The translations under genes and the position numbers were made by a program. The notes beneath the pieces were generated by a model that was given only the letters and a program-made list of their open reading frames with translations, made no database searches and was not told the origin of the DNA. DNA of 34,625 nucleotides, taken from assembly GCA_030427705.1 (NCBI GenBank), contig JAUIBR010000002.1, forward strand, positions 220,631-255,255, in the 5' to 3' direction. Below, piece by piece: positions 461 through 32,456 of this stretch (within the stretch, counting starts at the first letter, position 1; each line of letters begins with the position of its first letter). The DNA comes from a bacterium. Lineage in GTDB: Bacteria > Myxococcota_A > Bradymonadia > Bradymonadales > Bradymonadaceae.

Positions 461-534
461 GCCCTTGTAGCCCAATCGGTAGAGGCAGCGGACTTAAAAT
501 CCGTCCAGTGTGGGTTCGAATCCCACCAAGGGCA
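461..534 (+). tRNA. tRNA gene with a canonical cloverleaf, anticodon UAA (decodes UUA/UUG, Leu), a 5-nt variable loop and no encoded CCA. The identity is atypical and uncertain.
   Basis: Manual fold. Acceptor stem GCCCTTG/CAAGGGC (7 bp), discriminator A. D-stem GCCC/AGGC with one C.A mismatch and a 9-nt D-loop AATCGGTAG. Anticodon stem GCGGA/TCCGT, loop CTTAAAA with U33 and A37. Variable loop CCAGT. T-stem GTGGG/CCCAC with the canonical T-loop TTCGAAT. Confidence 0.75.
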
Positions 535-570
535 CTCGTTGAGCTCGCTGCGCTCGCGGCTAACGAGCTC

Positions 571-613
571 GGCTTTGCCTCGCGGCGACAAGATCGGCTT
601 TGCCTCGCGGCTT
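571..613. repeat. Two perfect 18-bp direct repeats TCGGCTTTGCCTCGCGGC (571-588 and 596-613) separated by 7 bp. They lie 37 bp downstream of the tRNA and 16 bp upstream of the yciH start.
   Basis: Exact duplication read in the sequence, period 25 bp. It is preceded by the short inverted repeat GAGCTCG...CGAGCTC (543-570). Confidence 0.8.
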
Positions 614-628
614 AGATCTGATGTGAAG

Positions 629-1027
629 ATGGCTAAGAAGAACAAGCGAAAGAAGTTGGGTGGGGATGAGGATGCTCAAGGTTTTGGGCATAACCCATTC
701 GCCGCTGCGCTTGGATTAGAGCCACCAGAACCAGAGGACACCCCTGTAACCACCGTACAATCAGATGGTTTTGATTGGTCGACCGTCTCGAAGGTCGTGC
801 TTCGTCGCGAACGCAAAGGTCGTGGCGGCAAGACGGTAACGTTGGTTCAAGGTCTCGAAGATGTCCCTGCTGATGCCCTCGACGACCTGGCTGCGACCAT
901 CAAGAAGTCCCTGAGTGTTGGGGTATCCGCAGAACCTGGACAATTGGTTGTGCAAGGAGACCAGCGATCACGACTTCAACCCGTGATTGAAGAACTGGGT
1001 GTGAACAAGGTCGTGCAGAGCGGTTAA
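629..1027 (+). CDS. yciH: Translation initiation factor SUI1/YciH family (eIF1-like).
   Basis: The C-terminal region RRERKGRGGKTVTLVQGL...VVQGDQRSRLQPVIEELG matches the SUI1 fold signature (RxxGRGGKxVTxIxGL ... iQGDhR). The ATG at 629 is chosen over the upstream in-frame ORF start at 539, because the upstream stretch consists of the direct repeats. Confidence 0.8.
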   Translation: MAKKNKRKKLGGDEDAQGFGHNPFAAALGLEPPEPEDTPVTTVQSDGFDWSTVSKVVLRRERKGRGGKTVTLVQGLEDVPADALDDLAATIKKSLSVGVSAEPGQLVVQGDQRSRLQPVIEELGVNKVVQSG

Positions 1028-6137: not shown

Positions 6138-6367
6138 GCGAAACCGCAGTTTTCATAGCCGCACATGACCGTGCTTGCGAGGAGGAGGAACCGGGTTATA
6201 TCGATCCCAAGACTGGATATTGGGTGATGAGCTCGGTTTTCTTACTCGACCAAGGGTCGTGCTGTGGTTCGGGTTGCCGGCATTGTCCCTTTGATTCAAC
6301 TGAACAACAGCGCGCAGGTCGGCCAAACAAGCCGTGCTTCCCCTGGTTCCCAAGGGAGGCGTCGTGA
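6134..6367 (+). CDS. Small Cys-rich protein (77 aa) carrying a CCGSGCRHCP motif; DUF5522-like.
   Basis: GYWVMSSVFLLDQGSCCGSGCRHCPFD matches my recollection of the DUF5522 signature (CCxxGCxHCPY). Its ATG overlaps the phoD stop (ATGA), and its 3' end overlaps the dusA start region. Both point to translational coupling. Confidence 0.5.
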   Translation: MSETAVFIAAHDRACEEEEPGYIDPKTGYWVMSSVFLLDQGSCCGSGCRHCPFDSTEQQRAGRPNKPCFPWFPREAS

Positions 6368-7359
6368 GTTTTAAGTACCCAATCAGTGTCGCCCCGATGA
6401 TGGCGCGCACCGACCGTCATTTCCGCTACTTCCTGCGACTGCTCACCCGTCGAACCCTGCTATACAGCGAGATGGTGGTCTATCAGGCCATCGAACACGG
6501 CGATCGAGACTATTTGCTGGGTTATGACGAATCGGAACATCCGCTCGTCCTGCAGCTAGGTGGAGACGACCCTGAAGGGCTCGCAAGAGCCGCACGAATC
6601 GCCCAAGACTGGGGCTACGACGAGGTCAATCTTAACGTCGGGTGTCCCAGCGACCGCGTGCAATCCGGAAATTTCGGCGTGTGCCTTATGAAAGAGCCGG
6701 ACACGGTCGCGCGTTGCATCGAAGCCATGATGAAGGCCGTCGACATTCCGGTGACGGTGAAACATCGCATCGGCGTCGATGACTTGGACGCCTACGATGA
6801 CATGGCGAACTTCGTCGAGGTCGTCCGCCAGACTGGATGTGACCGGTTCACGGTGCACGCTCGGAAAGCGTGGCTGAAAGGATTGAGCCCCAAGGAAAAT
6901 CGAAACATCCCGCCACTGCGCTACGAAGACGTCTATCGATTGAAGACAGACTTCCCCGAGCTCATCGTCGAGATCAACGGCGGGGTAAAAACCCACGACG
7001 AGATTCGCGAGCACCTGAAACATGTTGATGCAGTGATGATTGGACGCGCTGCCTACGATGACCCGTTTCTCTTTGCAGAGATGGATTCGCGCTACTTCGA
7101 CGAGACCTCAGACCCATATACCGACCGGCATTCGGCGATCGAAGCAATGTATCCGTACATCGAGGCCCAACGTTCCAAAGACGTTAGACTCAGTCATATA
7201 ACCCGCCATCTTTTGGCATTGTTTAACGGCATGCCCGGGGCGCGCCGTTGGCGCCGGCATCTAAGCGAGAACGCCGTCAAAGAAGGCGCGGGCGTCGAGG
7301 TACTTCAACAGGCACTCGCCCTTGTTCCGCGCGAAGAAGCGACGGCAGCAGCTATTTAG
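6334..7359 (+). CDS. dusA: tRNA-dihydrouridine synthase A.
   Basis: The N-terminus ISVAPMMARTDRHFRYFLRLLTR is the DusA signature (VAPMxDxTDRHxRYF). A TIM-barrel FMN-binding region follows. An alternative GTG start near 6365 is possible. Confidence 0.85.
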   Translation: MLPLVPKGGVVSFKYPISVAPMMARTDRHFRYFLRLLTRRTLLYSEMVVYQAIEHGDRDYLLGYDESEHPLVLQLGGDDPEGLARAARIAQDWGYDEVNLNVGCPSDRVQSGNFGVCLMKEPDTVARCIEAMMKAVDIPVTVKHRIGVDDLDAYDDMANFVEVVRQTGCDRFTVHARKAWLKGLSPKENRNIPPLRYEDVYRLKTDFPELIVEINGGVKTHDEIREHLKHVDAVMIGRAAYDDPFLFAEMDSRYFDETSDPYTDRHSAIEAMYPYIEAQRSKDVRLSHITRHLLALFNGMPGARRWRRHLSENAVKEGAGVEVLQQALALVPREEATAAAI

Positions 7360-13762: not shown

Positions 13763-14956
13763 ATGTCAGCATTGTCCTTTGAACTCAAATGCACCGATGG
13801 TCGTGCGCGTCGCGGTGCTGTGACGACGCCGCATGGCACGTTTCAGACGCCGGCCTTTATGCCCGTGGGAACGCGCGGAACCGTCAAGGGACTGATGCCT
13901 CGTGACCTTCGCGAGACGGGATCGGAAATCTGCCTGGGCAACACCTATCACCTGCACATCGCGCCGGGTGACAAGATCGTAAAGAAGTTGGGTGGACTGC
14001 ACGAATTCATGAAATGGGATCGCCCAATTCTGACGGACTCAGGCGGGTTCCAGGTTTTCAGCCTTCCGCGCGTGAAACTCGACGAACAAGGTGTCGAATT
14101 CAAATTCCAGAAGGGTGGGAAATCCGTGCTGCTGACACCTGAGCGCAGCATCGGAATCCAGGAGAACCTGGGTGCCGATATCATGATGGCATTCGATGTT
14201 TGCGTCGAATACCCGACCACCTACGAAGCGGCGCGCGATGCGGTCGAACGCACCGACCGGTGGCTGAAACGATGCGCCGCTGCGCAGACTCGTGACGACA
14301 TGGCGCTCTTTGGAATCGTGCAAGGTTCCGTCTACCCAGACCTGCGGCAAATGTCGGCCGAGCTCACCAAAGCCCACGACCTTCCAGGCATCGCGATCGG
14401 TGGCGTATCCGTTGGCGAAACGCACACTCAGATGATGGACGCAGTGGACCACGCCGAACCCTTCTTGCCGACCGACAAACCGCGATATCTGATGGGTGTT
14501 GGATTTCCGGAAGATCTGGTCGAGGCGGTCGCGCGGGGAATCGATATGTTCGACTGCGTGCTGCCAAGCCGGTTTGGACGCTCTGGCGTGATCTTCACAC
14601 GACGGGGACGGTTCCGCGTCACAAAGGGCAAATTCAAAGCGGACTCCTTCCCGTTGGATCCCAACTGCAATTGCTATGCGTGCCAGAACTTCTCGCGCGG
14701 CTACATCAACCACTTGTTGAACGTGAAAGAGATCTTGGGCTCGACGCTCGCCACTTTGCACAACATCACGTTCTACCAAGACCTGATGCGGGCAACGCGT
14801 CAGTCCATCGAGGAAGGCACCTTCCAATTCTTCCGGGAGGCGTTCTTGGCCGAGTACCTCGACGACGAGAAGAAGGCTGAAATCGGTGTCGAGCACTACA
14901 CTCGGGACAATGCCGACAAGCTTTCTTGGGATACGACGCATTCGGTCGTCCCCTAG
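13763..14956 (+). CDS. tgt: Queuine tRNA-ribosyltransferase.
   Basis: TPHGTFQTPAFMPVGTRGTVKG, catalytic region LTDSGGFQVFSL, and Zn site CNCYAC...H, all Tgt hallmarks. Confidence 0.9.
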   Translation: MSALSFELKCTDGRARRGAVTTPHGTFQTPAFMPVGTRGTVKGLMPRDLRETGSEICLGNTYHLHIAPGDKIVKKLGGLHEFMKWDRPILTDSGGFQVFSLPRVKLDEQGVEFKFQKGGKSVLLTPERSIGIQENLGADIMMAFDVCVEYPTTYEAARDAVERTDRWLKRCAAAQTRDDMALFGIVQGSVYPDLRQMSAELTKAHDLPGIAIGGVSVGETHTQMMDAVDHAEPFLPTDKPRYLMGVGFPEDLVEAVARGIDMFDCVLPSRFGRSGVIFTRRGRFRVTKGKFKADSFPLDPNCNCYACQNFSRGYINHLLNVKEILGSTLATLHNITFYQDLMRATRQSIEEGTFQFFREAFLAEYLDDEKKAEIGVEHYTRDNADKLSWDTTHSVVP

Positions 14957-15058: not shown

Positions 15059-18000
15059 GTGCATGCTAACACTCACTTTCAAGGTGTGATGGAGCCATTG
15101 ATGGCAAAGCTTCCTCAGCTTCCAAAAGCTGGTGACATGGTTGCGGGGCGTTTCCGCATTCTCGAACTACTCGGGAGTGGCGGTTTCGGTACTGTTTACC
15201 GCGGTCTTCAAGAGAACGTGGGCCGGGAAGTTGCGCTTAAATTCCTCACACCTGGCGTCGCTAAAGACCCTGTAAATGTCGAGCGATTCCGTCGCGAGGC
15301 CTACCACGTCAGCCAACTCCGCCACCCAAATACCATCACCCTTTACGACTACGGCCAGACCGAGGAAGGCCTGATCTACATGGTCATGGAGATCCTCGAG
15401 GGCACAAGTCTGGCGGATACGGTGCAAGACGAGGGGGCCATCGAATGGCCGCGGGCCTCACACATTTTCATCCAAGTACTCAAGAGCCTATCTGAAGCGC
15501 ACCAGCGCGGGCTCGTACACCGCGATCTCAAACCGGAGAACATCTTCCTCTGTGAGCTTTTTGGCGAGCAAGACTACGTGAAGGTGTTGGATTTCGGCGT
15601 CGCGAAGATGACGATGACAGGCGACGATGACGAAGGCTCTGAAGAGAAACTGACCAAGGCTGGTCGTATCTTCGGAACGCCAATGTACATGGCGCCTGAG
15701 CAGGCATGCGCTGAACCGATCACGCCGGCCACCGACGTCTATGCGTTGGGGCTGCTGATCTTCGAGATGCTAACGGGCCTTCCGCCGGTTACAGGCCGTA
15801 ACCGCATGGATGTGATCCACAAGCAGATCCGCGATCCGGTTCCAGAGCTCACCAAGGAATTGGAGGGCACACATCTGGGCGATTTCATCCGGAAAGCGAC
15901 CGAGAAGAAACCGTCCGATCGGTACTTGGACGCATCGGAAATGCTGGAAGCGTTTGTTTTTGCCCTCCGTGGCATGAATATTCGCCCGAAAGCACGTGGA
16001 GCGACGCATCCTGAGATCTCCCTGACCGCGCTTGTCCCAGATGGGATCGACGCGATCAGCGATGTCTCTGAGGACGAACCGCTTTCGCAACCCATTCCGA
16101 AGGCCGTGTTGACGGAGGCGGATCAGACGATGCCGGCTCCGCAGGGGTTCACGGGCGATCCAAACGCCACCAAGCCACCACCAGGTGTCTATCCCGTGGC
16201 TGGTGCGGATCAAAGCGTCGACGAGATCGAGATCGACAGCAAGCCGACGAAGCCAATGCCGCCCCCGATTCCTGCGGCCCCTGATGCACCTACGAAAGCA
16301 TCGATGCCGACGACCGAGCGCAAAGAGCTCGCGCAGCGCATGGCCAGCGCGGAGCGCCGACAACTTGACCGACCAGCGTCCAAACCCCGGTACGAACTGC
16401 CGCTGATTGGGCGTGAAAAAGACGTGCTTCGCCTGTCGAGTTTGGTGCAAGAGCACATCTTCTCGAACGATGGCCATATCGTCTTTTTGGAAGGCGAGAA
16501 CGGCGTCGGAAAGTCGCGTGTCGTCAACGCGCTGCAGTCGAATCTGCGAAACTTGGGCGTCGATGTATGTATCGGCAACAGCCGGCCACGATCGATTCCG
16601 CTTGAGCCACTTCGTGAGGCGATCGCGGACTACTGGGGCGTAAGTCACGCAGAGCGTATGCAGGTCGACACGACGCTGCGCACAGACCTCGGCGCGACTG
16701 GCGATTACCAGGAAGAAGAGATCAATCGATTGGTCGACTTCCTTCGTCCGCGAGGACAGGAAGAGACGCAGGTCGATCTGGGCTCCGACGAGACCGGCGT
16801 TATGTACGCGCAGATCGAGCGGGTTCTGGTCGGGCTGTCACAGCGAAAGCAGCTCGTCATCGTGCTCGAAGACATTCAGTACGCAGACAGCGCGACACTC
16901 GCGTTTTTAGAGTACTTCGCCGTCACATTGCGCACGCAGAATCTGCCCATCGTCCTGGTGTTGACCTTCCGCCCTGAAGAGAGAGCCGCGAACCGCGACC
17001 TCGAACAAAGTCTGCGTACGATCGTCAGCAATGTCGGAACCGGGTTCACCCGCTACGTCCTGCGACGACTTCGTGGTCGGGACCTGTCGGTGCTCTTGGA
17101 CCATATCCTGACGCTGGAACCACGCTTGAAAGAGCGTATCGGTTGGCTGAGCCAAGGCGTTCCCCTTCATGCGATTCAGATCGTTCGCTACCTGCAAAAC
17201 GAAGGTAGCCTGGCGAAGAAGAAGAAGCGCTGGGGACTTAAGAAGGGCTCCCCCCGGGAAATCGATCTTCCGCCGGATTTGATGGATCTGATGCGCCTTC
17301 GCATCGAACAAGCGACTTCCCACGAGAATCGCCCGAGCCTGAAGGCAACGCTCGAGTGGTTGGCGACGTTGGGTATGCGGACCCCGGTCGAACTGCTGGG
17401 CGCAGTCGTCGGTGGTAGTGCCGCGAACCTCGACGAAGACCTGGGATTGCTTCGTGAACAAGGCATCGTCCGACAAACGCTGCATCAGAATCTGATCTGC
17501 GTAGAGTTCGACAACAGCCTGCTGCGCGAAGCAATTCTTAAGGAATTGTCTGAACGCTGGGCGAATCGACGGCTGCACCACGCCGCTGCCGAAAAGAAGA
17601 TCGAATTCTACAAAGCCAAAGGGATGGAAGTTCCACTGGTGGAAATCGCTGAGCACTGGCGACAGGCGGGTGAGACGGACAAATACCGCGATACGATCTT
17701 TGCGGCGGCGCAGCGGTCTATGCAACGTCAGGACCTACGCGGTGCTCGAGAGCGCTATCGCGAGCTCGCCGACCTGTTGGAATCGCGTGACGATTTGGGT
17801 GAACTTTGGTCGAACGCACAGCTCTCACTGGCCGAACTCGCATGGCGATTCGGTGAGTTTGGCCTCGCCGAAGACCGCTTCAAACGCGCGATCCAGAAAG
17901 GTGCCACCAAGGGACCGGGACTGGGCCGCGCGTTTCGTGGTTTGGGGCACCTTTTGGTGATGCAGGGCCGCCAAACTGAGGCCCAGCAGTGGTACCAAAA

Positions 18001-19318
18001 CGCGCTGGATTGGAGCCGTAAACACAACGACGGGCGTGGCGTGGCCAAAGCGCTCATCGGCCTCTCAAAGGTTCACCTCATCAACGGAGATCTGGCTGCC
18101 GAAGCAGAGGACTCTGAGCAGCTTGTGGGCATGCTTCCCAAGCTTCCGCGCGGCGAGATTTCCGGCAAAGTGCAGATGCACCTCGCGGAGTCGGCTCGCC
18201 GTCGCGGCGACCTGACGAAGCGACGCGACTATCTCGTGAAAGCTCGCCAGGAATTCGAGCAAGTAAACCACCGCCCCGGTCTCTCGGACGCCCTGCTCGC
18301 CTTGGGTAGCGCGTTTATGGACCCCGCGATGGACGCGCCAAACCGCTGGCAGGATGCCGGGCAGATGTTCCGACAAGCCTTGGAGCTGAAGCGGTCGTTG
18401 GGCGACCGAATGGGCGTGGCAGAAGCCTACCGAAACCTTGGCCAGCTTGAGGTCGAGCTTGGTAATTACAAAGGCGGAGAGGAATTGCTCCAGCAGAGCC
18501 TCTCGATCCACGAGGCGCTCGGCACACGTTACTACGCCGCTGCAGTCTACAACGCCATGGGTGTGGCCAGCCTGTACATGCGTGACTACGCGGCCGCCCA
18601 GCAGCAAATGCAGAAGGCAACGGACATCTTCAAACGCCTCGGCGACAAGATTGCGATGTCGCACTGCATGATGAATCTGGGAGAGCTGGCGCTTAACAGC
18701 GGCGACATCGCGAAGGCACAGACGATGCTTCGTGAAGCGCGTCGAATGAAAGAGTCGCTAGGAACCAGCTGGGCCGTCTACGACATCCGAAATCACCTCG
18801 CCATTGTCGCGATGTGGCTGGGCGAGTTCGACGAGGCCGAGAAACTCCTCGAAGAAACGCTGCAGACTGTCGATGAACGTGGAACCGGAGAAGACCGCGC
18901 CGTTGCCCGAAGCCTGTTTGGCCTGCTGCGCTGCTTCCAGAGCCGCCTGCAGCTTGCAGCCCTCGAACTTGGCCGTGCGCGCGCAGATGCTGAAGACCTT
19001 GGCACGGACCGTGTCACGTTCTTCTGCCAGGCCAATGCCGCATTCTATGCTGGCCTCACAGAATCGGAATCCGCGTTCAAAGGGATCGTGGAGACATTCC
19101 GAAATGAAGAATTCTTCTACACGCTCGATAAGCTGGTTTGGTTGGAGTTGTTGCGACGCCTCGCGACCAAAACCGCCGAGACCGAGCGCAGTCGCCAGTC
19201 GGTGCGGTTGCTTCAGACAACCGCACGATTGCACGAGGAGCTTGGATTCACGGACGAGAGCAAATCGCTCGAAGATACCGCATCCCAGCTGGAAGAAGAG
19301 ATCAATCAAGCCCGATAA
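15059..19318 (+). CDS. Ser/Thr protein kinase fused to a P-loop NTPase (AAA/STAND-type) and a long C-terminal TPR array (1419 aa). The likely true start is the ATG at 15101.
   Basis: Kinase motifs GSGGFGTVYRG, VALK, HRDLKPENIFL, DFGVAK, GTPMYMAPE. A Pro-rich linker follows. Walker A is GENGVGKSRV, and there is a Walker B-like LVIVLEDIQYAD. Many TPR-like repeats follow. GGAG lies 6 nt upstream of the ATG at 15101. Confidence 0.85.
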   Translation: MHANTHFQGVMEPLMAKLPQLPKAGDMVAGRFRILELLGSGGFGTVYRGLQENVGREVALKFLTPGVAKDPVNVERFRREAYHVSQLRHPNTITLYDYGQTEEGLIYMVMEILEGTSLADTVQDEGAIEWPRASHIFIQVLKSLSEAHQRGLVHRDLKPENIFLCELFGEQDYVKVLDFGVAKMTMTGDDDEGSEEKLTKAGRIFGTPMYMAPEQACAEPITPATDVYALGLLIFEMLTGLPPVTGRNRMDVIHKQIRDPVPELTKELEGTHLGDFIRKATEKKPSDRYLDASEMLEAFVFALRGMNIRPKARGATHPEISLTALVPDGIDAISDVSEDEPLSQPIPKAVLTEADQTMPAPQGFTGDPNATKPPPGVYPVAGADQSVDEIEIDSKPTKPMPPPIPAAPDAPTKASMPTTERKELAQRMASAERRQLDRPASKPRYELPLIGREKDVLRLSSLVQEHIFSNDGHIVFLEGENGVGKSRVVNALQSNLRNLGVDVCIGNSRPRSIPLEPLREAIADYWGVSHAERMQVDTTLRTDLGATGDYQEEEINRLVDFLRPRGQEETQVDLGSDETGVMYAQIERVLVGLSQRKQLVIVLEDIQYADSATLAFLEYFAVTLRTQNLPIVLVLTFRPEERAANRDLEQSLRTIVSNVGTGFTRYVLRRLRGRDLSVLLDHILTLEPRLKERIGWLSQGVPLHAIQIVRYLQNEGSLAKKKKRWGLKKGSPREIDLPPDLMDLMRLRIEQATSHENRPSLKATLEWLATLGMRTPVELLGAVVGGSAANLDEDLGLLREQGIVRQTLHQNLICVEFDNSLLREAILKELSERWANRRLHHAAAEKKIEFYKAKGMEVPLVEIAEHWRQAGETDKYRDTIFAAAQRSMQRQDLRGARERYRELADLLESRDDLGELWSNAQLSLAELAWRFGEFGLAEDRFKRAIQKGATKGPGLGRAFRGLGHLLVMQGRQTEAQQWYQNALDWSRKHNDGRGVAKALIGLSKVHLINGDLAAEAEDSEQLVGMLPKLPRGEISGKVQMHLAESARRRGDLTKRRDYLVKARQEFEQVNHRPGLSDALLALGSAFMDPAMDAPNRWQDAGQMFRQALELKRSLGDRMGVAEAYRNLGQLEVELGNYKGGEELLQQSLSIHEALGTRYYAAAVYNAMGVASLYMRDYAAAQQQMQKATDIFKRLGDKIAMSHCMMNLGELALNSGDIAKAQTMLREARRMKESLGTSWAVYDIRNHLAIVAMWLGEFDEAEKLLEETLQTVDERGTGEDRAVARSLFGLLRCFQSRLQLAALELGRARADAEDLGTDRVTFFCQANAAFYAGLTESESAFKGIVETFRNEEFFYTLDKLVWLELLRRLATKTAETERSRQSVRLLQTTARLHEELGFTDESKSLEDTASQLEEEINQAR

Positions 19319-22295: not shown

Positions 22296-23909
22296 TTATT
22301 TGCAGGTGACGCGGTTCAGCAGCTTGGATGCGCTGACTTCGAAAGTCTTGGTCTTGTTGACCGATTTCGATTTGAACTCGATCTCATACTCACCCTGACG
22401 CAAGCGAGTCGAGATAGGGGTCGTACCGACCTTTTTGCCTTTGTAATAGACGTCGGCAACCGGTTTGCAGGAGACCGACACGATCACGCCTTCGCTGCCA
22501 TGATCAAACGTCGGGTCGACTTTCGGCGCATCGTGATGCACCGGTTCCTTCTTTGACACCACGGGTGTCTCGGTTTCGGGCTGCTTCTTCAGATACACCA
22601 TGGTGTAGAACAGGTAGCCGCCGACCGCGGTGACGACGAGAAACAAGATCGCGAACACCGCAATCAAGCCACCGTTAGAGCCGCCACCGTCATCTGCCGG
22701 CAACACGGACTCAGAAGTGACGGTGTCCGTCCGAATCTCTGCAGGACGTTTCATCTCGACCGAAGGCATCGCGCCGGTCTCGATGTTTTCCAACATGATT
22801 TCTTCCTGAGTCTTCTCTCGGATCGGACCGTTGGTGCCTGTCACATGAGGTGAAGGCTCCGGAGTCATATGATCAAACTTCGGCGAAGAATCGTCTTGTT
22901 GTGGCTGCGGCTGTGAGCGCGCCTTGCTTTGTGCGGCCGTGTGCCGCGTCGTTGGAAGTCCTTGAACCTGGCGGATATAGGCCGCCACTTCACGGTCGCC
23001 GACATATCCTGCGTGCTCACGGAGCAACGACTCGACATCGCGCAACATGTCGTGCGCATCGATATACCGATCGTCGGCATTCTTTGCGGTCGCCTTCTGG
23101 ATTACCGCGTTGACCGCCTCTGGCAAGTCGGTCCTTACGGCGCAAACACTCGGCGTCGGCTGAGTCAAAATGTTCGTTACAGCGGCGAGGTCTTCGCCAA
23201 ATGGCTTTTGCCCGGCGAGCAGTTCATAGAACAGGACACCAGCCGCGAAGATATCGACACGGCGGTCGATCTCTTGGGATTGAATCTGCTCCGGCGCCAT
23301 GTACGCGTACTTGCCCTTCACAGCTCCGGTCTGCGTCTTGCTTTGATTCGCCTTGGCTTTTGCGACCCCAAAGTCCACCAGTTTAACGATCCCATCGTTG
23401 GAAACGATCACGTTGTGAGGTGTGACGTCGCGATGCACCAGGTTGTAAGGAGTGCCGTCCCTGTCGGTGTAATCGTGTGCGTAGTCGAGCGCTTCGAGCA
23501 CGTCGATGATGACCTTTGATGCGATGCCAAGAGGCATCACTTCGCCTCGAGATGCAGTGGTTTCAACGAGGTCGGACAGATCCATACCGTCGATGAATTC
23601 CATGGCGATGAAGTACTCTTCACCCGCCTGCCCCAGCTCATAGATCTGTGCGATCTTCGGGTGCGACAGTTGCGCAGCCAATCGTGCTTCATCCAAGAAC
23701 ATCTTCGTAAAGCTCTCATCCCGCGCCAAATGCGGTAGAATCTGCTTAATGACCAGTTCTTTGTTGAATCCGCCGGGGCCAGCCTGTTCAGCTAGCCAGA
23801 TCTCTGCCATCCCTCCAGTGGCAAGATGTCTTACCAACGTGTATTTTCCGAGAGTTCGGGTGGCTTCCATCCCGTCGAGAGCGCTAGAGTTCATGAGTAT
23901 CGAACGCAT
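22296..23909 (-). CDS. Transmembrane Ser/Thr protein kinase with an extracytoplasmic C-terminal PEGA-like domain.
   Basis: Kinase motifs GGMAEIWLA, HRDVTPHNVIV, DFGVAKA, YMAPE. A single TM helix LIAVFAILFLVVTAVGGYLFYTMVYL. The C-terminal region VSVSCKPVADVYYKGKKVGTTPISTRLRQGEYEIEFKS is PEGA-like. Confidence 0.85.
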   Translation of the reverse strand: MRSILMNSSALDGMEATRTLGKYTLVRHLATGGMAEIWLAEQAGPGGFNKELVIKQILPHLARDESFTKMFLDEARLAAQLSHPKIAQIYELGQAGEEYFIAMEFIDGMDLSDLVETTASRGEVMPLGIASKVIIDVLEALDYAHDYTDRDGTPYNLVHRDVTPHNVIVSNDGIVKLVDFGVAKAKANQSKTQTGAVKGKYAYMAPEQIQSQEIDRRVDIFAAGVLFYELLAGQKPFGEDLAAVTNILTQPTPSVCAVRTDLPEAVNAVIQKATAKNADDRYIDAHDMLRDVESLLREHAGYVGDREVAAYIRQVQGLPTTRHTAAQSKARSQPQPQQDDSSPKFDHMTPEPSPHVTGTNGPIREKTQEEIMLENIETGAMPSVEMKRPAEIRTDTVTSESVLPADDGGGSNGGLIAVFAILFLVVTAVGGYLFYTMVYLKKQPETETPVVSKKEPVHHDAPKVDPTFDHGSEGVIVSVSCKPVADVYYKGKKVGTTPISTRLRQGEYEIEFKSKSVNKTKTFEVSASKLLNRVTCK

Positions 23910-30036: not shown

Positions 30037-31749
30037 ATGGGCCTAATCTACGCCATAATCCTTATCGGGGTGCTCATTTTCGTCCATGAGCTTGGCCACT
30101 TCCTGGTGGCGAAGTACTTCGACGTAAAAGTGCTCCGTTTCGCGATCGGATTCGGCCCAACCATCGTCAGCTACACAAGGGGCGAGACGGAGTACGCCTT
30201 GTGTGCGCTCCCGTTGGGCGGTTACGTGCAGATGCTCGGGGGTGACCTCGAATCTATTGAGCACCTCCCCAAGGAAGACCGTGAACGTGCTCTGATGAGC
30301 AAACCTATCTGGCAACGATCGCTCGTCGTTCTTGCTGGTCCAGTCTTCAATATCGTCCTTCCCGTCATCATCTACTTCGTCTTTGCGATGGGTGTCACCA
30401 CGACGATTCCAAGCGTGGTCGGCGACGTTTTCGAGGGGATGCCTGCAGCATCCGCCGGACTGAAACCTGGCGACAAGATCGTCGAGATTGATGGCGAACC
30501 CATCGGTTATTGGTACGAGGTGATTGAGAACCTCACGACCGCGCCGGGACGCGAGGTGAAGCTGAAGCTCGAACGCGACGGCAAGATCGTCGAGACCTCG
30601 GTCACACCTCAGACCAAGACGGATACCGATTTTCTGGGGCTAAATGTCAGAACCTACGGTTTGACGGGCATTCACCCAGCTACCTATGGCCCCACGCTTG
30701 GCATCACCAACCCCGAGGGGCCCGCTGCGCAAGCGGGCCTTGAGCATTTCGACCGGGTGATCTCGATCGACGGGAAACATATTCGCCGCTTCGACCAGAT
30801 CGAGTCAGCGATTCGCTCAAGCAACGGCACTGCCCTGAAAATGCAGGTCTTCCGACGTTCACCGATCTCGGTGGATTTCGGGCGATTCTATGCGCAGCAC
30901 CCCATAGAAGTGACGGTCACCCCAACCAAAGTCGGCGATGAATGGACCATCGGCGTACACAACGCTGAGATGTTCGTGTCTCGTATTGAAGATGGCTCAC
31001 CGTCTGCCAAAGCGGGACTCCAGATCGGAGATATGGTCACCAAGCTTGATGGCGTCCCGATCTCGAATTGGCGCTACCTCAATCGCCAAATCTCAAACGC
31101 GGTAAACACGAAGGTGGTCGAGGTCTCCGAAGAGACGGGAGCGCAGGCACCTGAAGTCGATGTTCCATTCGAGATCACCTATGTTCGCGATGGCAAAGAG
31201 CTCACCACGACCCTGACCCCCAAAGTCGTCAAACTTGAGCAACAAGACTTCTTCAAGCTCGACATCGGATGGGGGCACATCCCGGACCTCATCGAGCCAG
31301 ATGAGGTGCCCTTCCCGTTCTTCAAACGTCTCGCCTACGCCGCCGAATACTCAGTCAGCCAGACTTGGGAGTTCTGCAAGATGCTGGTGCTTGGATTTGT
31401 GCGTATGGCACAAGGCCGGCTCAGCCTCGATAACGTTGGCGGCCCAATTATGATTGGTGAGCTGGCAGCACAGGCAGGCAAGGCCGGGTGGGACCGCTTT
31501 CTTCAGATGATGGCGCTGATCAGTATCAATCTTGGGGTTATCAATCTGCTTCCGATCCCAATCTTGGATGGTGGACAGTTGATGCTGTTCGCACTGGAAA
31601 AGCTAAAGCGTGGGCCGCTCAGCTTCCGGACTCGCCAGATTGCCGCCTATGTCGGTTTCACGATGATCCTGTTCCTTGTCGTGCTCGCGTTCAAAAACGA
31701 TATCGAACGCCAGTGGGATGATATCGCGCAATGGGTCAACGAACTCTGA
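30037..31749 (+). CDS. rseP: RIP metalloprotease RseP (site-2 protease, M50 family) with PDZ domains.
   Basis: HELGH (VHELGHFLVAKY) in TM1, PDZ-like segments (GLKPGDKIVEIDGEPI; GLQIGDMVTKLDGVPI), and the C-terminal M50 motif NLLPIPILDGG. Confidence 0.9.
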   Translation: MGLIYAIILIGVLIFVHELGHFLVAKYFDVKVLRFAIGFGPTIVSYTRGETEYALCALPLGGYVQMLGGDLESIEHLPKEDRERALMSKPIWQRSLVVLAGPVFNIVLPVIIYFVFAMGVTTTIPSVVGDVFEGMPAASAGLKPGDKIVEIDGEPIGYWYEVIENLTTAPGREVKLKLERDGKIVETSVTPQTKTDTDFLGLNVRTYGLTGIHPATYGPTLGITNPEGPAAQAGLEHFDRVISIDGKHIRRFDQIESAIRSSNGTALKMQVFRRSPISVDFGRFYAQHPIEVTVTPTKVGDEWTIGVHNAEMFVSRIEDGSPSAKAGLQIGDMVTKLDGVPISNWRYLNRQISNAVNTKVVEVSEETGAQAPEVDVPFEITYVRDGKELTTTLTPKVVKLEQQDFFKLDIGWGHIPDLIEPDEVPFPFFKRLAYAAEYSVSQTWEFCKMLVLGFVRMAQGRLSLDNVGGPIMIGELAAQAGKAGWDRFLQMMALISINLGVINLLPIPILDGGQLMLFALEKLKRGPLSFRTRQIAAYVGFTMILFLVVLAFKNDIERQWDDIAQWVNEL

Positions 31750-32456
31750 TGTCGGCGTCTCCAAAAATCCTGGCGGTGGACACCTCGACCAAGATTCAAG
31801 TGTTGGGATTAACCATCGGAACGGCTCAAGTTGCCCGCGTTCAGCACAAGGTTCGGGTCGATCATTCAAACACGTTGCTGTCGAATATCAACGCAATGCT
31901 GTCGCAGCATGGCCTGAAGGTCCAAGATCTGGACCTCGTCGCATGTGGATTGGGGCCGGGGAGCTTCACCGGACTTCGCGTGGGCATGGCAAACGCCAAG
32001 GCAATCGCACGTGCCGCGGACGCTCCGATTGTGGGTGTCTCATCACTCGCGGCCATCGCTCGCCCGGTCGCTGCGTTGCACGATGGGACCATTGTTTCCG
32101 GAATTGACGCGCGTCGCGGAGAAGTGTTTGCCGTCGCTTTCGATAACGAAATGCAGCCACTCGACGATGAAGTCGCCTACACGCCGGACGAACTGCACCA
32201 AATGATCGAAGCGCTCGCTGAGACAACCAACGTCAAGTTGGTCGGCAATGGGTTTCGCGCTCATGATTCGCTTCAAAATTGGGCGGGCAACGTTGAGCTA
32301 CTGGATCCCGCTTGGGATTGGCCGTCGCCCTACTCTATCGCGATGATGGCCAAGAATCGGCTTGAGGAGTCAGGCCCAGATGACTTGGTCAGCCTCGAGC
32401 CGAATTACATTCGGCCAAGCGACGCTGAAATCTCTTGGAAAAAGAAGTCGTCCTAA
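31749..32456 (+). CDS. tsaB: tRNA threonylcarbamoyladenosine biosynthesis protein TsaB (YeaZ). The ORF also opens at 31731.
   Basis: ILAVDTSTKIQVLGL and ...DLDLVACGLGPGSFTGLRVGMANAKAIA... are the TsaB/YeaZ hallmarks. The ATG at 31749 overlaps the rseP stop (TGATG). Confidence 0.8.
   Translation: MSASPKILAVDTSTKIQVLGLTIGTAQVARVQHKVRVDHSNTLLSNINAMLSQHGLKVQDLDLVACGLGPGSFTGLRVGMANAKAIARAADAPIVGVSSLAAIARPVAALHDGTIVSGIDARRGEVFAVAFDNEMQPLDDEVAYTPDELHQMIEALAETTNVKLVGNGFRAHDSLQNWAGNVELLDPAWDWPSPYSIAMMAKNRLEESGPDDLVSLEPNYIRPSDAEISWKKKSS

Follow-up and report, generated by a model that had tools for sequence, protein, structure and literature searches.

The window, as we call the whole stretch of 34,625 nt analyzed here, derives from a member of the Bradymonadaceae (contig JAUIBR010000002.1) and has a uniform base composition of ~56% GC. 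A single tRNA was called in it by ARAGORN, namely a tRNA-Leu with the anticodon taa at 461–535. The gene itself comprises 74 nt on the forward strand (Table 1), and the Rfam model RF00005 covered it end to end without truncation (66.8 bits, E = 1.3e-12; gathering score 29). Folded as a single sequence, it adopted a cloverleaf with −28 kcal/mol (z = −2.58), and an independent Logan assembly contained the same tRNA sequence with no differences. The tRNA gene is followed by a gene for a translation factor of the SUI1/YciH family. Further genes in the window code for an aldehyde dehydrogenase, PhoD, Dus, PolX, TGT, shikimate-pathway enzymes, chorismate synthase, CdsA, an RseP-type protease, a TsaB-like protein, GlnD, and Ser/Thr kinases. 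The 3 kb upstream of the window, as represented in the Logan assembly, likewise carry ordinary chromosomal genes. The named homologues of TGT, SUI1, and the aldehyde dehydrogenase come from Lujinxingia, Persicimonas, the Bradymonadaceae, and other Myxococcota at about 60–71% identity, which points to a poorly sampled relative of Bradymonadia as the source. Three genes of the window have roles in tRNA modification (Dus, 6334–7359; TGT, 13763–14956; the TsaB-like protein of the TsaD family, 31731–32456), which is probably a coincidence. A protein of 1,419 aa (15059–19318) combines a Ser/Thr kinase with an AAA_16 ATPase and TPR repeats, and a second Ser/Thr kinase is encoded at 22296–23909; such kinases are typical of signalling proteins of the Myxococcota.

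Table 1 Features of the predicted tRNA gene and its downstream neighborhood in the window.
Feature	Position	Strand	Source or remark
Predicted type I (short variable loop) tRNA-Leu(UAA) gene, CCA not encoded	461–534	+	ARAGORN; Rfam RF00005, 66.8 bits; covariance model R1 (see text), 90.1 bits
Acceptor stem, 5' strand GCCCUUG, pairs with 527–533	461–467	+	Rfam alignment
U8, A9, D-arm GCCC-AAUCGGUAG-AGGC, and A26 (20-nt region)	468–487	+	Sequence; leuZ comparison
U8:A14, A15, G18 G19, and C13.A22 mismatch, all within the D region	468–487	+	Sequence
Anticodon arm GCGGA-CUUAAAA-UCCGU; anticodon UAA at 495–497; U33, A37, A38	488–504	+	ARAGORN anticodon position 35
Variable loop CCAGU, 5 nt; U48 can pair with A15 (Levitt pair)	505–509	+	Sequence
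T-arm GUGGG-UUCGAAU-CCCAC	510–526	+	Rfam alignment; covariation; identical in the closest relative (L139)
Acceptor stem, 3' strand CAAGGGC, and discriminator A73 (534)	527–534	+	Sequence
Two tandem 24-nt repeats in the tRNA-SUI1 spacer	563–611	+	Copies at 563–586 and 588–611
SUI1/YciH-family translation factor gene, downstream neighbor	629–1027	+	Pfam PF01253; 94 nt past the tRNA

All four stems of the window tRNA are intact. An earlier note on this DNA had described a clean cloverleaf with a UAA anticodon, a class I shape, a 5-nt CCAGU loop, and A73, and this description was borne out by ARAGORN, by the Rfam score, and by the sequence itself. According to textbooks, bacterial leucine tRNAs carry a long extra arm. 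Class II tRNAs are defined by a variable arm of more than 10 nt with a stem-loop, and the variable region of the window tRNA has 5 nt. A class I shape with a leucine anticodon departs from the textbook, and the wording "atypical tRNA" chosen in the earlier note is a fair description. Its further statement that bacterial tRNA-Leu is always class II is incorrect, as a type I tRNA-Leu has been characterized in Streptomyces (PMC6614811) and short tRNA-Leu were retrieved in the viral and metagenome scans reported below. The Leu-type D-loop (A14 A15 Y N G18 G19 N A G) and A73 are both present in the window tRNA.

The spacer between the tRNA and SUI1 contains direct repeats, which the earlier note had correctly recognized: the two copies are 92% identical, share an 18-nt exact core, and have no other occurrence in the window. 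The fold of the spacer was not unusual (z = −0.25), and the repeats are probably not part of the function of the tRNA. No promoter was detected in a sigma-70 consensus scan of positions 250–700, and thus the promoter-like element ascribed to the tRNA by the earlier note was not recovered; by eye, a weak TGGACG-17 nt-TATAAA is discernible at 418–446. The closest relative of the locus is a contig of 590 bp (L139), which encodes a SUI1 protein with 80% identity and starts inside the tRNA at U48. Its first 26 nt (U48 to A73) lie directly upstream of SUI1 and match positions 509–534 of the window in 26 of 26 positions. The spacer that follows has 44 nt, is unrelated to the 94-nt spacer of the window, and lacks the repeats found there. 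This comparison indicates that the tRNA-SUI1 arrangement was inherited in the lineage and that the tRNA was kept, whereas the spacer was not. The spacer of the relative has short tandem repeats of its own (L139:27–70; GGTGTCT in three or four copies), which are unrelated in sequence to those of the window. In the Bradymonadaceae-like contigs with SUI1 homologues (L004–L010), no tRNA was found beside SUI1.

A blastn search of phage genomes with the window tRNA yielded 534 records with near full-length matches, and those listed were mostly annotated as tRNA-Leu. In seven phage loci that were inspected, the matched tRNAs were 73–78 nt long and had the anticodons UAA, UAG, or CAA. The "Leu" labels assigned by ARAGORN derive from the anticodon. 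Viral contigs were scanned with a motif that describes the tRNA body at class I spacing and leaves the anticodon free (CCAAN{1,2}GGNAGAGRY-N6-YTNNNR-N{14,15}-GGTTCGAATCC). At least 121 matches on at least 120 contigs, representing at least 113 distinct sequences, were obtained, and all those listed had a leucine anticodon and A73. The anticodons among the viral matches listed were UAA (66), UAG (24), CAA (19), GAG (4), AAG (4), and CAG (4). Neither Lys, Asn, or Phe anticodons nor any other non-Leu anticodon occurred on the family body among the at least 121 viral matches. Since these six anticodons belong to two different codon boxes and have only the amino acid in common, the body type is a leucine body. 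This anticodon census is the independent part of the isotype evidence.

In the phage loci, which were selected for having a short tRNA-Leu, 185 of the 224 Leu tRNAs were short, and the Ser and Tyr tRNAs were nearly all long-armed. Across the viral loci L011–L017 and L019–L138, short tRNA-Leu were abundant and covered all six anticodons, often with two or three per tRNA cluster. A metagenome contig (L248:2368–7396) carried a cluster of 15 tRNAs with three short tRNA-Leu (UAG, CAG, and UAA). The same cluster holds an amber-suppressor-like tRNA with a CUA anticodon, designated "Pyl" by ARAGORN, which may indicate phage stop-codon recoding. In the locus of Pseudomonas phage Ep020 (L012:822–1224), ARAGORN called a tmRNA that overlaps a tRNA-Ala and is probably spurious. 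The tRNA-Leu(UAG) of phage T5, which was checked as a possible coliphage example, is of the long type (85 nt), and a blastn search of E. coli genomes with the window tRNA gave no match. A free-anticodon scan of genome contigs returned two short actinobacterial tRNAs, both with UAA, but these two matches are uninformative on rarity because the pattern admitted only 6-nt variable loops and so excluded the window tRNA itself. In the literature we found passing mentions of such tRNAs, and no paper that describes the phage short tRNA-Leu family as such.

Among 213 distinct short tRNA-Leu, every stem pair was paired in 92–100% of the sequences with four to seven pair types, and all seven pairs of the acceptor stem were paired in 94–100% with five to seven pair types. 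U8:A14 was present in 213/213 of these sequences, A15:U48 in 204/213, A73 in 211/213, and the "CA" combination of C13 and A22 in 202/213. The window tRNA holds all features of the family body (a G-Y-C-C / AAYNGGNAG / A-G-R-C D-arm, 13.22 CA, U8:A14, A15:U48, and A73). The C13.A22 mismatch pointed out in the earlier note is therefore present, but, as a combination shared by 202 of 213 family members, it does not serve as a sign of decay. The register of the D-stem is compatible either with this mismatch or with a C13-G pair and a bulged A, an ambiguity that follows from the near invariance of C13, the preceding G, and A22. In one alignment (A2; GCCCCTGTGGTGGAACGGAATACACATCCGTCT..., GCCCAGATGACGGAATAGGTATACGTG...), a few short tRNA-Leu had a class II-type D-arm (G9, G13, and an R-Y-G-G/A-C-R-Y stem), which suggests repeated loss of the long arm or the existence of intermediates.

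A covariance model (R1) was trained on 88 short tRNA-Leu of phages, whose anticodons were masked; the window sequence was excluded. R1 ranked the window tRNA first with 90.1 bits, a score that is high partly by construction because the scan motif and the training set were derived from the D-arm and T-loop of this very tRNA. Every cross-checked match above 72.5 bits was a Leu tRNA. The best non-Leu sequence was a tRNA-Lys(UUU) with 72.5 bits, 17.6 bits below the window tRNA, followed by Arg(UCU) and Met, and a non-Leu body (Lys, Arg, or Met) thus fits the window tRNA worse than a Leu body by at least 17.6 bits. E. coli leuZ scored 52.8 bits. Isotype-specific scoring, which the earlier note had proposed as a check on the anticodon, hence agrees on Leu. 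The impression of an Asn/Lys-like body given in that note holds for the generic UAGC.CA..GGUAGAG core and is explained by tRNA-Lys being the next-nearest body on R1, but it does not extend to the score of the Lys body. Edit distances of the D region to reference tRNAs did not discriminate between isotypes, and long-arm Leu tRNAs were even farther from the window tRNA than Asn, Ile, and Phe owing to their differing stem pairs. In the feature table of the reference set, A15:U48, A73, and the length of the D region fit Leu, yet they are shared by other isotypes. An early idea that a G34U change in a tRNA-Phe(GAA) could have given rise to the window tRNA was abandoned in light of the family evidence.

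Short tRNA-Leu(UAA) genes also occur outside of phages. A metagenome scan with the exact anticodon arm of the window tRNA, the adjoining D-stem strand, and the end of the variable loop retrieved at least 120 contigs with at least 114 parsable tRNAs and at least 38 distinct sequences, and all tRNAs listed were 73–75 nt long. Among the matches listed, 103 of 120 loci contained a solitary tRNA. In the largest cluster of metagenome loci the tRNA adjoins a PE/PPE protein, a hallmark of mycobacteria. Another large cluster adjoins an NADH dehydrogenase; the identical sequence of this enzyme is on record for Rothia dentocariosa, and cluster members are on record for R. mucilaginosa. Further loci show the order DUF501-Ppx-tRNA or Ppx-UDG-tRNA at both 41% and 54% GC, and endolysin-type genes give a few contigs a phage-like character. 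The solitary genes and their housekeeping neighbors indicate that the short tRNA-Leu(UAA) gene is a regular part of the chromosome in a diverse range of bacteria, of which Actinobacteria are the most recognizable. The arrangement of Ppx/GppA, with or without UDG, and tRNA-Leu(UAA), or of DUF501, Ppx, and the tRNA, was seen in L201, L206, and L236 (~41% GC), in L221 and L223 (~54% GC), and in L142. Its recurrence across differing GC contents suggests a conserved gene position in one large clade, probably the Actinobacteria. No synteny with the window was detected when its proteins were compared by tblastn with the at least 120 metagenome loci. In Mycobacterium kyorinense (L002:93–2595; NZ_LQPE01000148.1), a short tRNA-Leu(UAA) with a 6-nt variable loop is part of an array with the order Arg(CCG), Arg(ACG), short Leu(UAA), Arg(UCU), and Ile(UAU), which resembles the mobile tRNA arrays described in mycobacteria.

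The actinobacterial chromosomal tRNA-Leu(UAA) with Rothia- or Mycobacterium-type neighbors resemble the window tRNA in their length of 73–75 nt and their solitary position, and their D-stem 3' strand, anticodon arm, and variable-loop end are identical to it as a consequence of the search pattern. They differ in the acceptor and T stems (59–70 of 74 positions identical), in the adjoining genes (Ndh, PE/PPE, DUF501-Ppx, or Ppx-UDG), and in phylum. The phage tRNAs, such as those of P59 (UAG and UAA), Mx1 (UAA and CAA), and Mycobacterium phage Kykar (UAA), share the body of the window tRNA, including the GYCC-AAYNGGNAG-AGRC D-arm, A26, a CUUARAA-type anticodon loop, a 5-nt variable loop ending in U, the GGUUCGAAUCC T-loop, and A73. 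In contrast to the solitary chromosomal gene in the window, the phage versions are often located in tRNA clusters and have any of the six Leu anticodons. The class II tRNA of E. coli leuZ has the same D-loop, AAUCGGUAG, as the window tRNA and also shares the anticodon, the predicted decoding role, A14, A15, G18G19, and A73 with it, but its 87 nt (CCA included) comprise a long variable arm as well as G9 and a GUGG/ACAC D-stem. The animal mitochondrial tRNA-Leu(UUR) has the type I shape, the UAA anticodon, and A73 in common with the window tRNA; it differs in its organellar location, its relaxed structure, and the separate LeuRS that serves it, and no relationship is implied. In mycobacteria, a comparative study mentions a short-looped tRNA-Leu(UAG) that is encoded in a cluster (PMC6582537), and a short-loop tRNA-Leu is also implied for M. 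tuberculosis by a study of the MenT3 toxin, where long loops are named for tRNA-Leu-2, -3, and -5 alone (PMC11541572).

A precedent is the type I tRNA-Leu(CAA) of Streptomyces coelicolor, which has a 5-nt loop and is leucylated by the single LeuRS of this organism (Fan, Huang, Ji & Wang, NAR 2019, PMC6614811). According to its described features, it is like the window tRNA in being chromosomal and in having the 5-nt loop, A73, U8:A14, and G18G19, and it coexists with a single LeuRS in a system where leucylation is proven. The differences concern the anticodon (CAA versus UAA), the phylum (Actinobacteria versus Myxococcota/Bradymonadia), and the variable loop (ACAGC with C48 versus CCAGU with U48). 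The S. coelicolor LeuRS charges the type I tRNA-Leu(CAA) with approximately half the efficiency of the type II tRNA-Leu(UAA), the type I gene could not be deleted, and both U8:A14 and the exact number of five variable-loop nucleotides matter for leucylation of the type I tRNA (PMC6614811). Charging depends on the leucine-specific domain of LeuRS; animal mitochondrial tRNA-Leu(UUR) is not a substrate of the S. coelicolor enzyme, and the Streptomyces type I tRNA-Leu is not a substrate of the E. coli one (PMC6614811). The features on which bacterial LeuRS rely, namely U8:A14, A15:U48, G18G19, A73, and the 5-nt variable loop, are all present in the window tRNA. From these identity features and the Streptomyces precedent, we infer that the LeuRS of this organism charges the window tRNA, whereby acceptance of a type I tRNA-Leu is an assumption because such tRNAs are not substrates of every LeuRS: the E. 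coli enzyme rejects the Streptomyces one, and the LeuRS of S. purpurogeneiscleroticus does not accept the type I form either. The window itself contains no leuS gene.

Across 23 genes of the window, UUA accounted for 13 of 1,071 Leu codons, which were spread over nine genes, and UUG occurred 215 times (20% of the Leu codons). In the proposed course of events, the solitary chromosomal gene would be transcribed, the transcript would mature and receive its CCA post-transcriptionally, and the organism's LeuRS would, by analogy to Streptomyces, charge it with leucine. The mature tRNA would then decode UUA, and by wobble probably UUG, as leucine under low demand. The A36-A37-A38 context would fit an i6A37-type modification, and a modification of U34 would be expected for a reader of UUR codons.

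The gene could instead be a redundant copy that was acquired horizontally, for example from a phage, and resides beside a class II tRNA-Leu(UAA), being functional but dispensable or serving as a spare against tRNA-targeting nucleases. The abundance of the family in phages and the near-identical bodies in unrelated hosts would be in line with such an origin, as would the tRNA-Leu(UAG) of Bacillus phage P59, which is 89% identical over 72 nt, and the short Leu(UAA) and Leu(CAA) of Myxococcus phage Mx1. However, no integrase, phage genes, or att-like features were found in about 37 kb around the tRNA, the base composition is uniform, and actinobacterial contigs carry the same type as a solitary gene amid conserved housekeeping genes. 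The tRNA-SUI1 arrangement moreover recurs in a relative despite divergence to 80% protein identity. Any acquisition was hence not recent, and we consider a redundant copy of this kind improbable. The C13.A22 mismatch, the lack of a consensus promoter in the scanned region and of an encoded CCA, and the position of the tRNA, which a repeat-containing spacer of 94 nt separates from the translation-factor gene downstream, might suggest a decaying pseudogene, what is left of an integration site, or a tRNA-like element that regulates SUI1. These options, two of which the earlier note had also raised, are very improbable in view of the intact stems, the strong stem covariation, the Rfam and family-model scores, and the mismatch being the family norm. 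Furthermore, the sequence was identical in the independent assembly, the 26-nt 3' part is perfectly kept at the same locus in the diverged relative while the adjacent spacer is not, a duplicate of the tRNA 3' end was not found, and the fold of the spacer is unremarkable.

The earlier note had also suggested a reassigned tRNA, which would be a Lys-, Asn-, or Phe-type body that acquired the UAA anticodon and inserts another amino acid at UUA and UUG. The generic core places the D region near Asn, Ile, Phe, and Lys by edit distance, tRNA-Lys is the nearest non-Leu body on R1, and deliberately mistranslating tRNAs reportedly exist in Streptomyces (tRNA-ProX). Against this, the family body was found with leucine anticodons exclusively, and with all six of them, among the at least 121 viral matches, and the best Lys tRNA scored 17.6 bits lower on R1. 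The window tRNA has A73, whereas the Asn tRNAs of the reference set mostly have G73, and A15:U48 and the 20-nt D region are Leu-like. In housekeeping genes one fifth of the Leu codons are UUG, so that a change in their meaning would be highly disruptive. A tRNA that mis-acylates or reassigns its codons hence appears extremely improbable, and the suggestion made in the earlier note is unsupported.

The gene is very probably a bona fide type I tRNA-Leu(UAA), predicted from its sequence to be functional and to read the rare UUA codon and probably UUG. The commonness of short tRNA-Leu in phages and Actinobacteria, together with one proven leucine acceptor, indicates that it is an ordinary gene, neither reassigned nor regulatory nor decayed. 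Type I tRNA-Leu are already known from Streptomyces, phages, and Actinobacteria, and what is new here is a member in a relative of the Myxococcota. A much broader reading is that the short tRNA-Leu form a very large family that is exchanged between phages and bacteria and has displaced the class II tRNA-Leu(UAA) in several lineages, including the Bradymonadia. We regard this reading as rather unlikely. If it were true, type I tRNA-Leu would be accepted by many bacterial LeuRS, which conflicts with the description of the Streptomyces LeuRS as the only prokaryotic enzyme known for this ability. Selection might then favor loss of the long arm as an escape from toxins or nucleases that recognize class II tRNAs, and the window tRNA would be the only reader of the rare UUA codon in its genome, like bldA in Streptomyces, which resembles the window tRNA in serving this codon.

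There was no sign of codon reassignment in the window. Within the literature searched, the Streptomyces case is the only one described in detail, and the abundance of short tRNA-Leu with six anticodons in phages and the chromosomal UAA type in diverse bacteria may be of use to specialists on tRNAs and their synthetases. For annotation, the finding corrects a textbook assumption: when a bacterial or phage tRNA with a leucine anticodon turns out to be short, this is no reason to mark it as aberrant.
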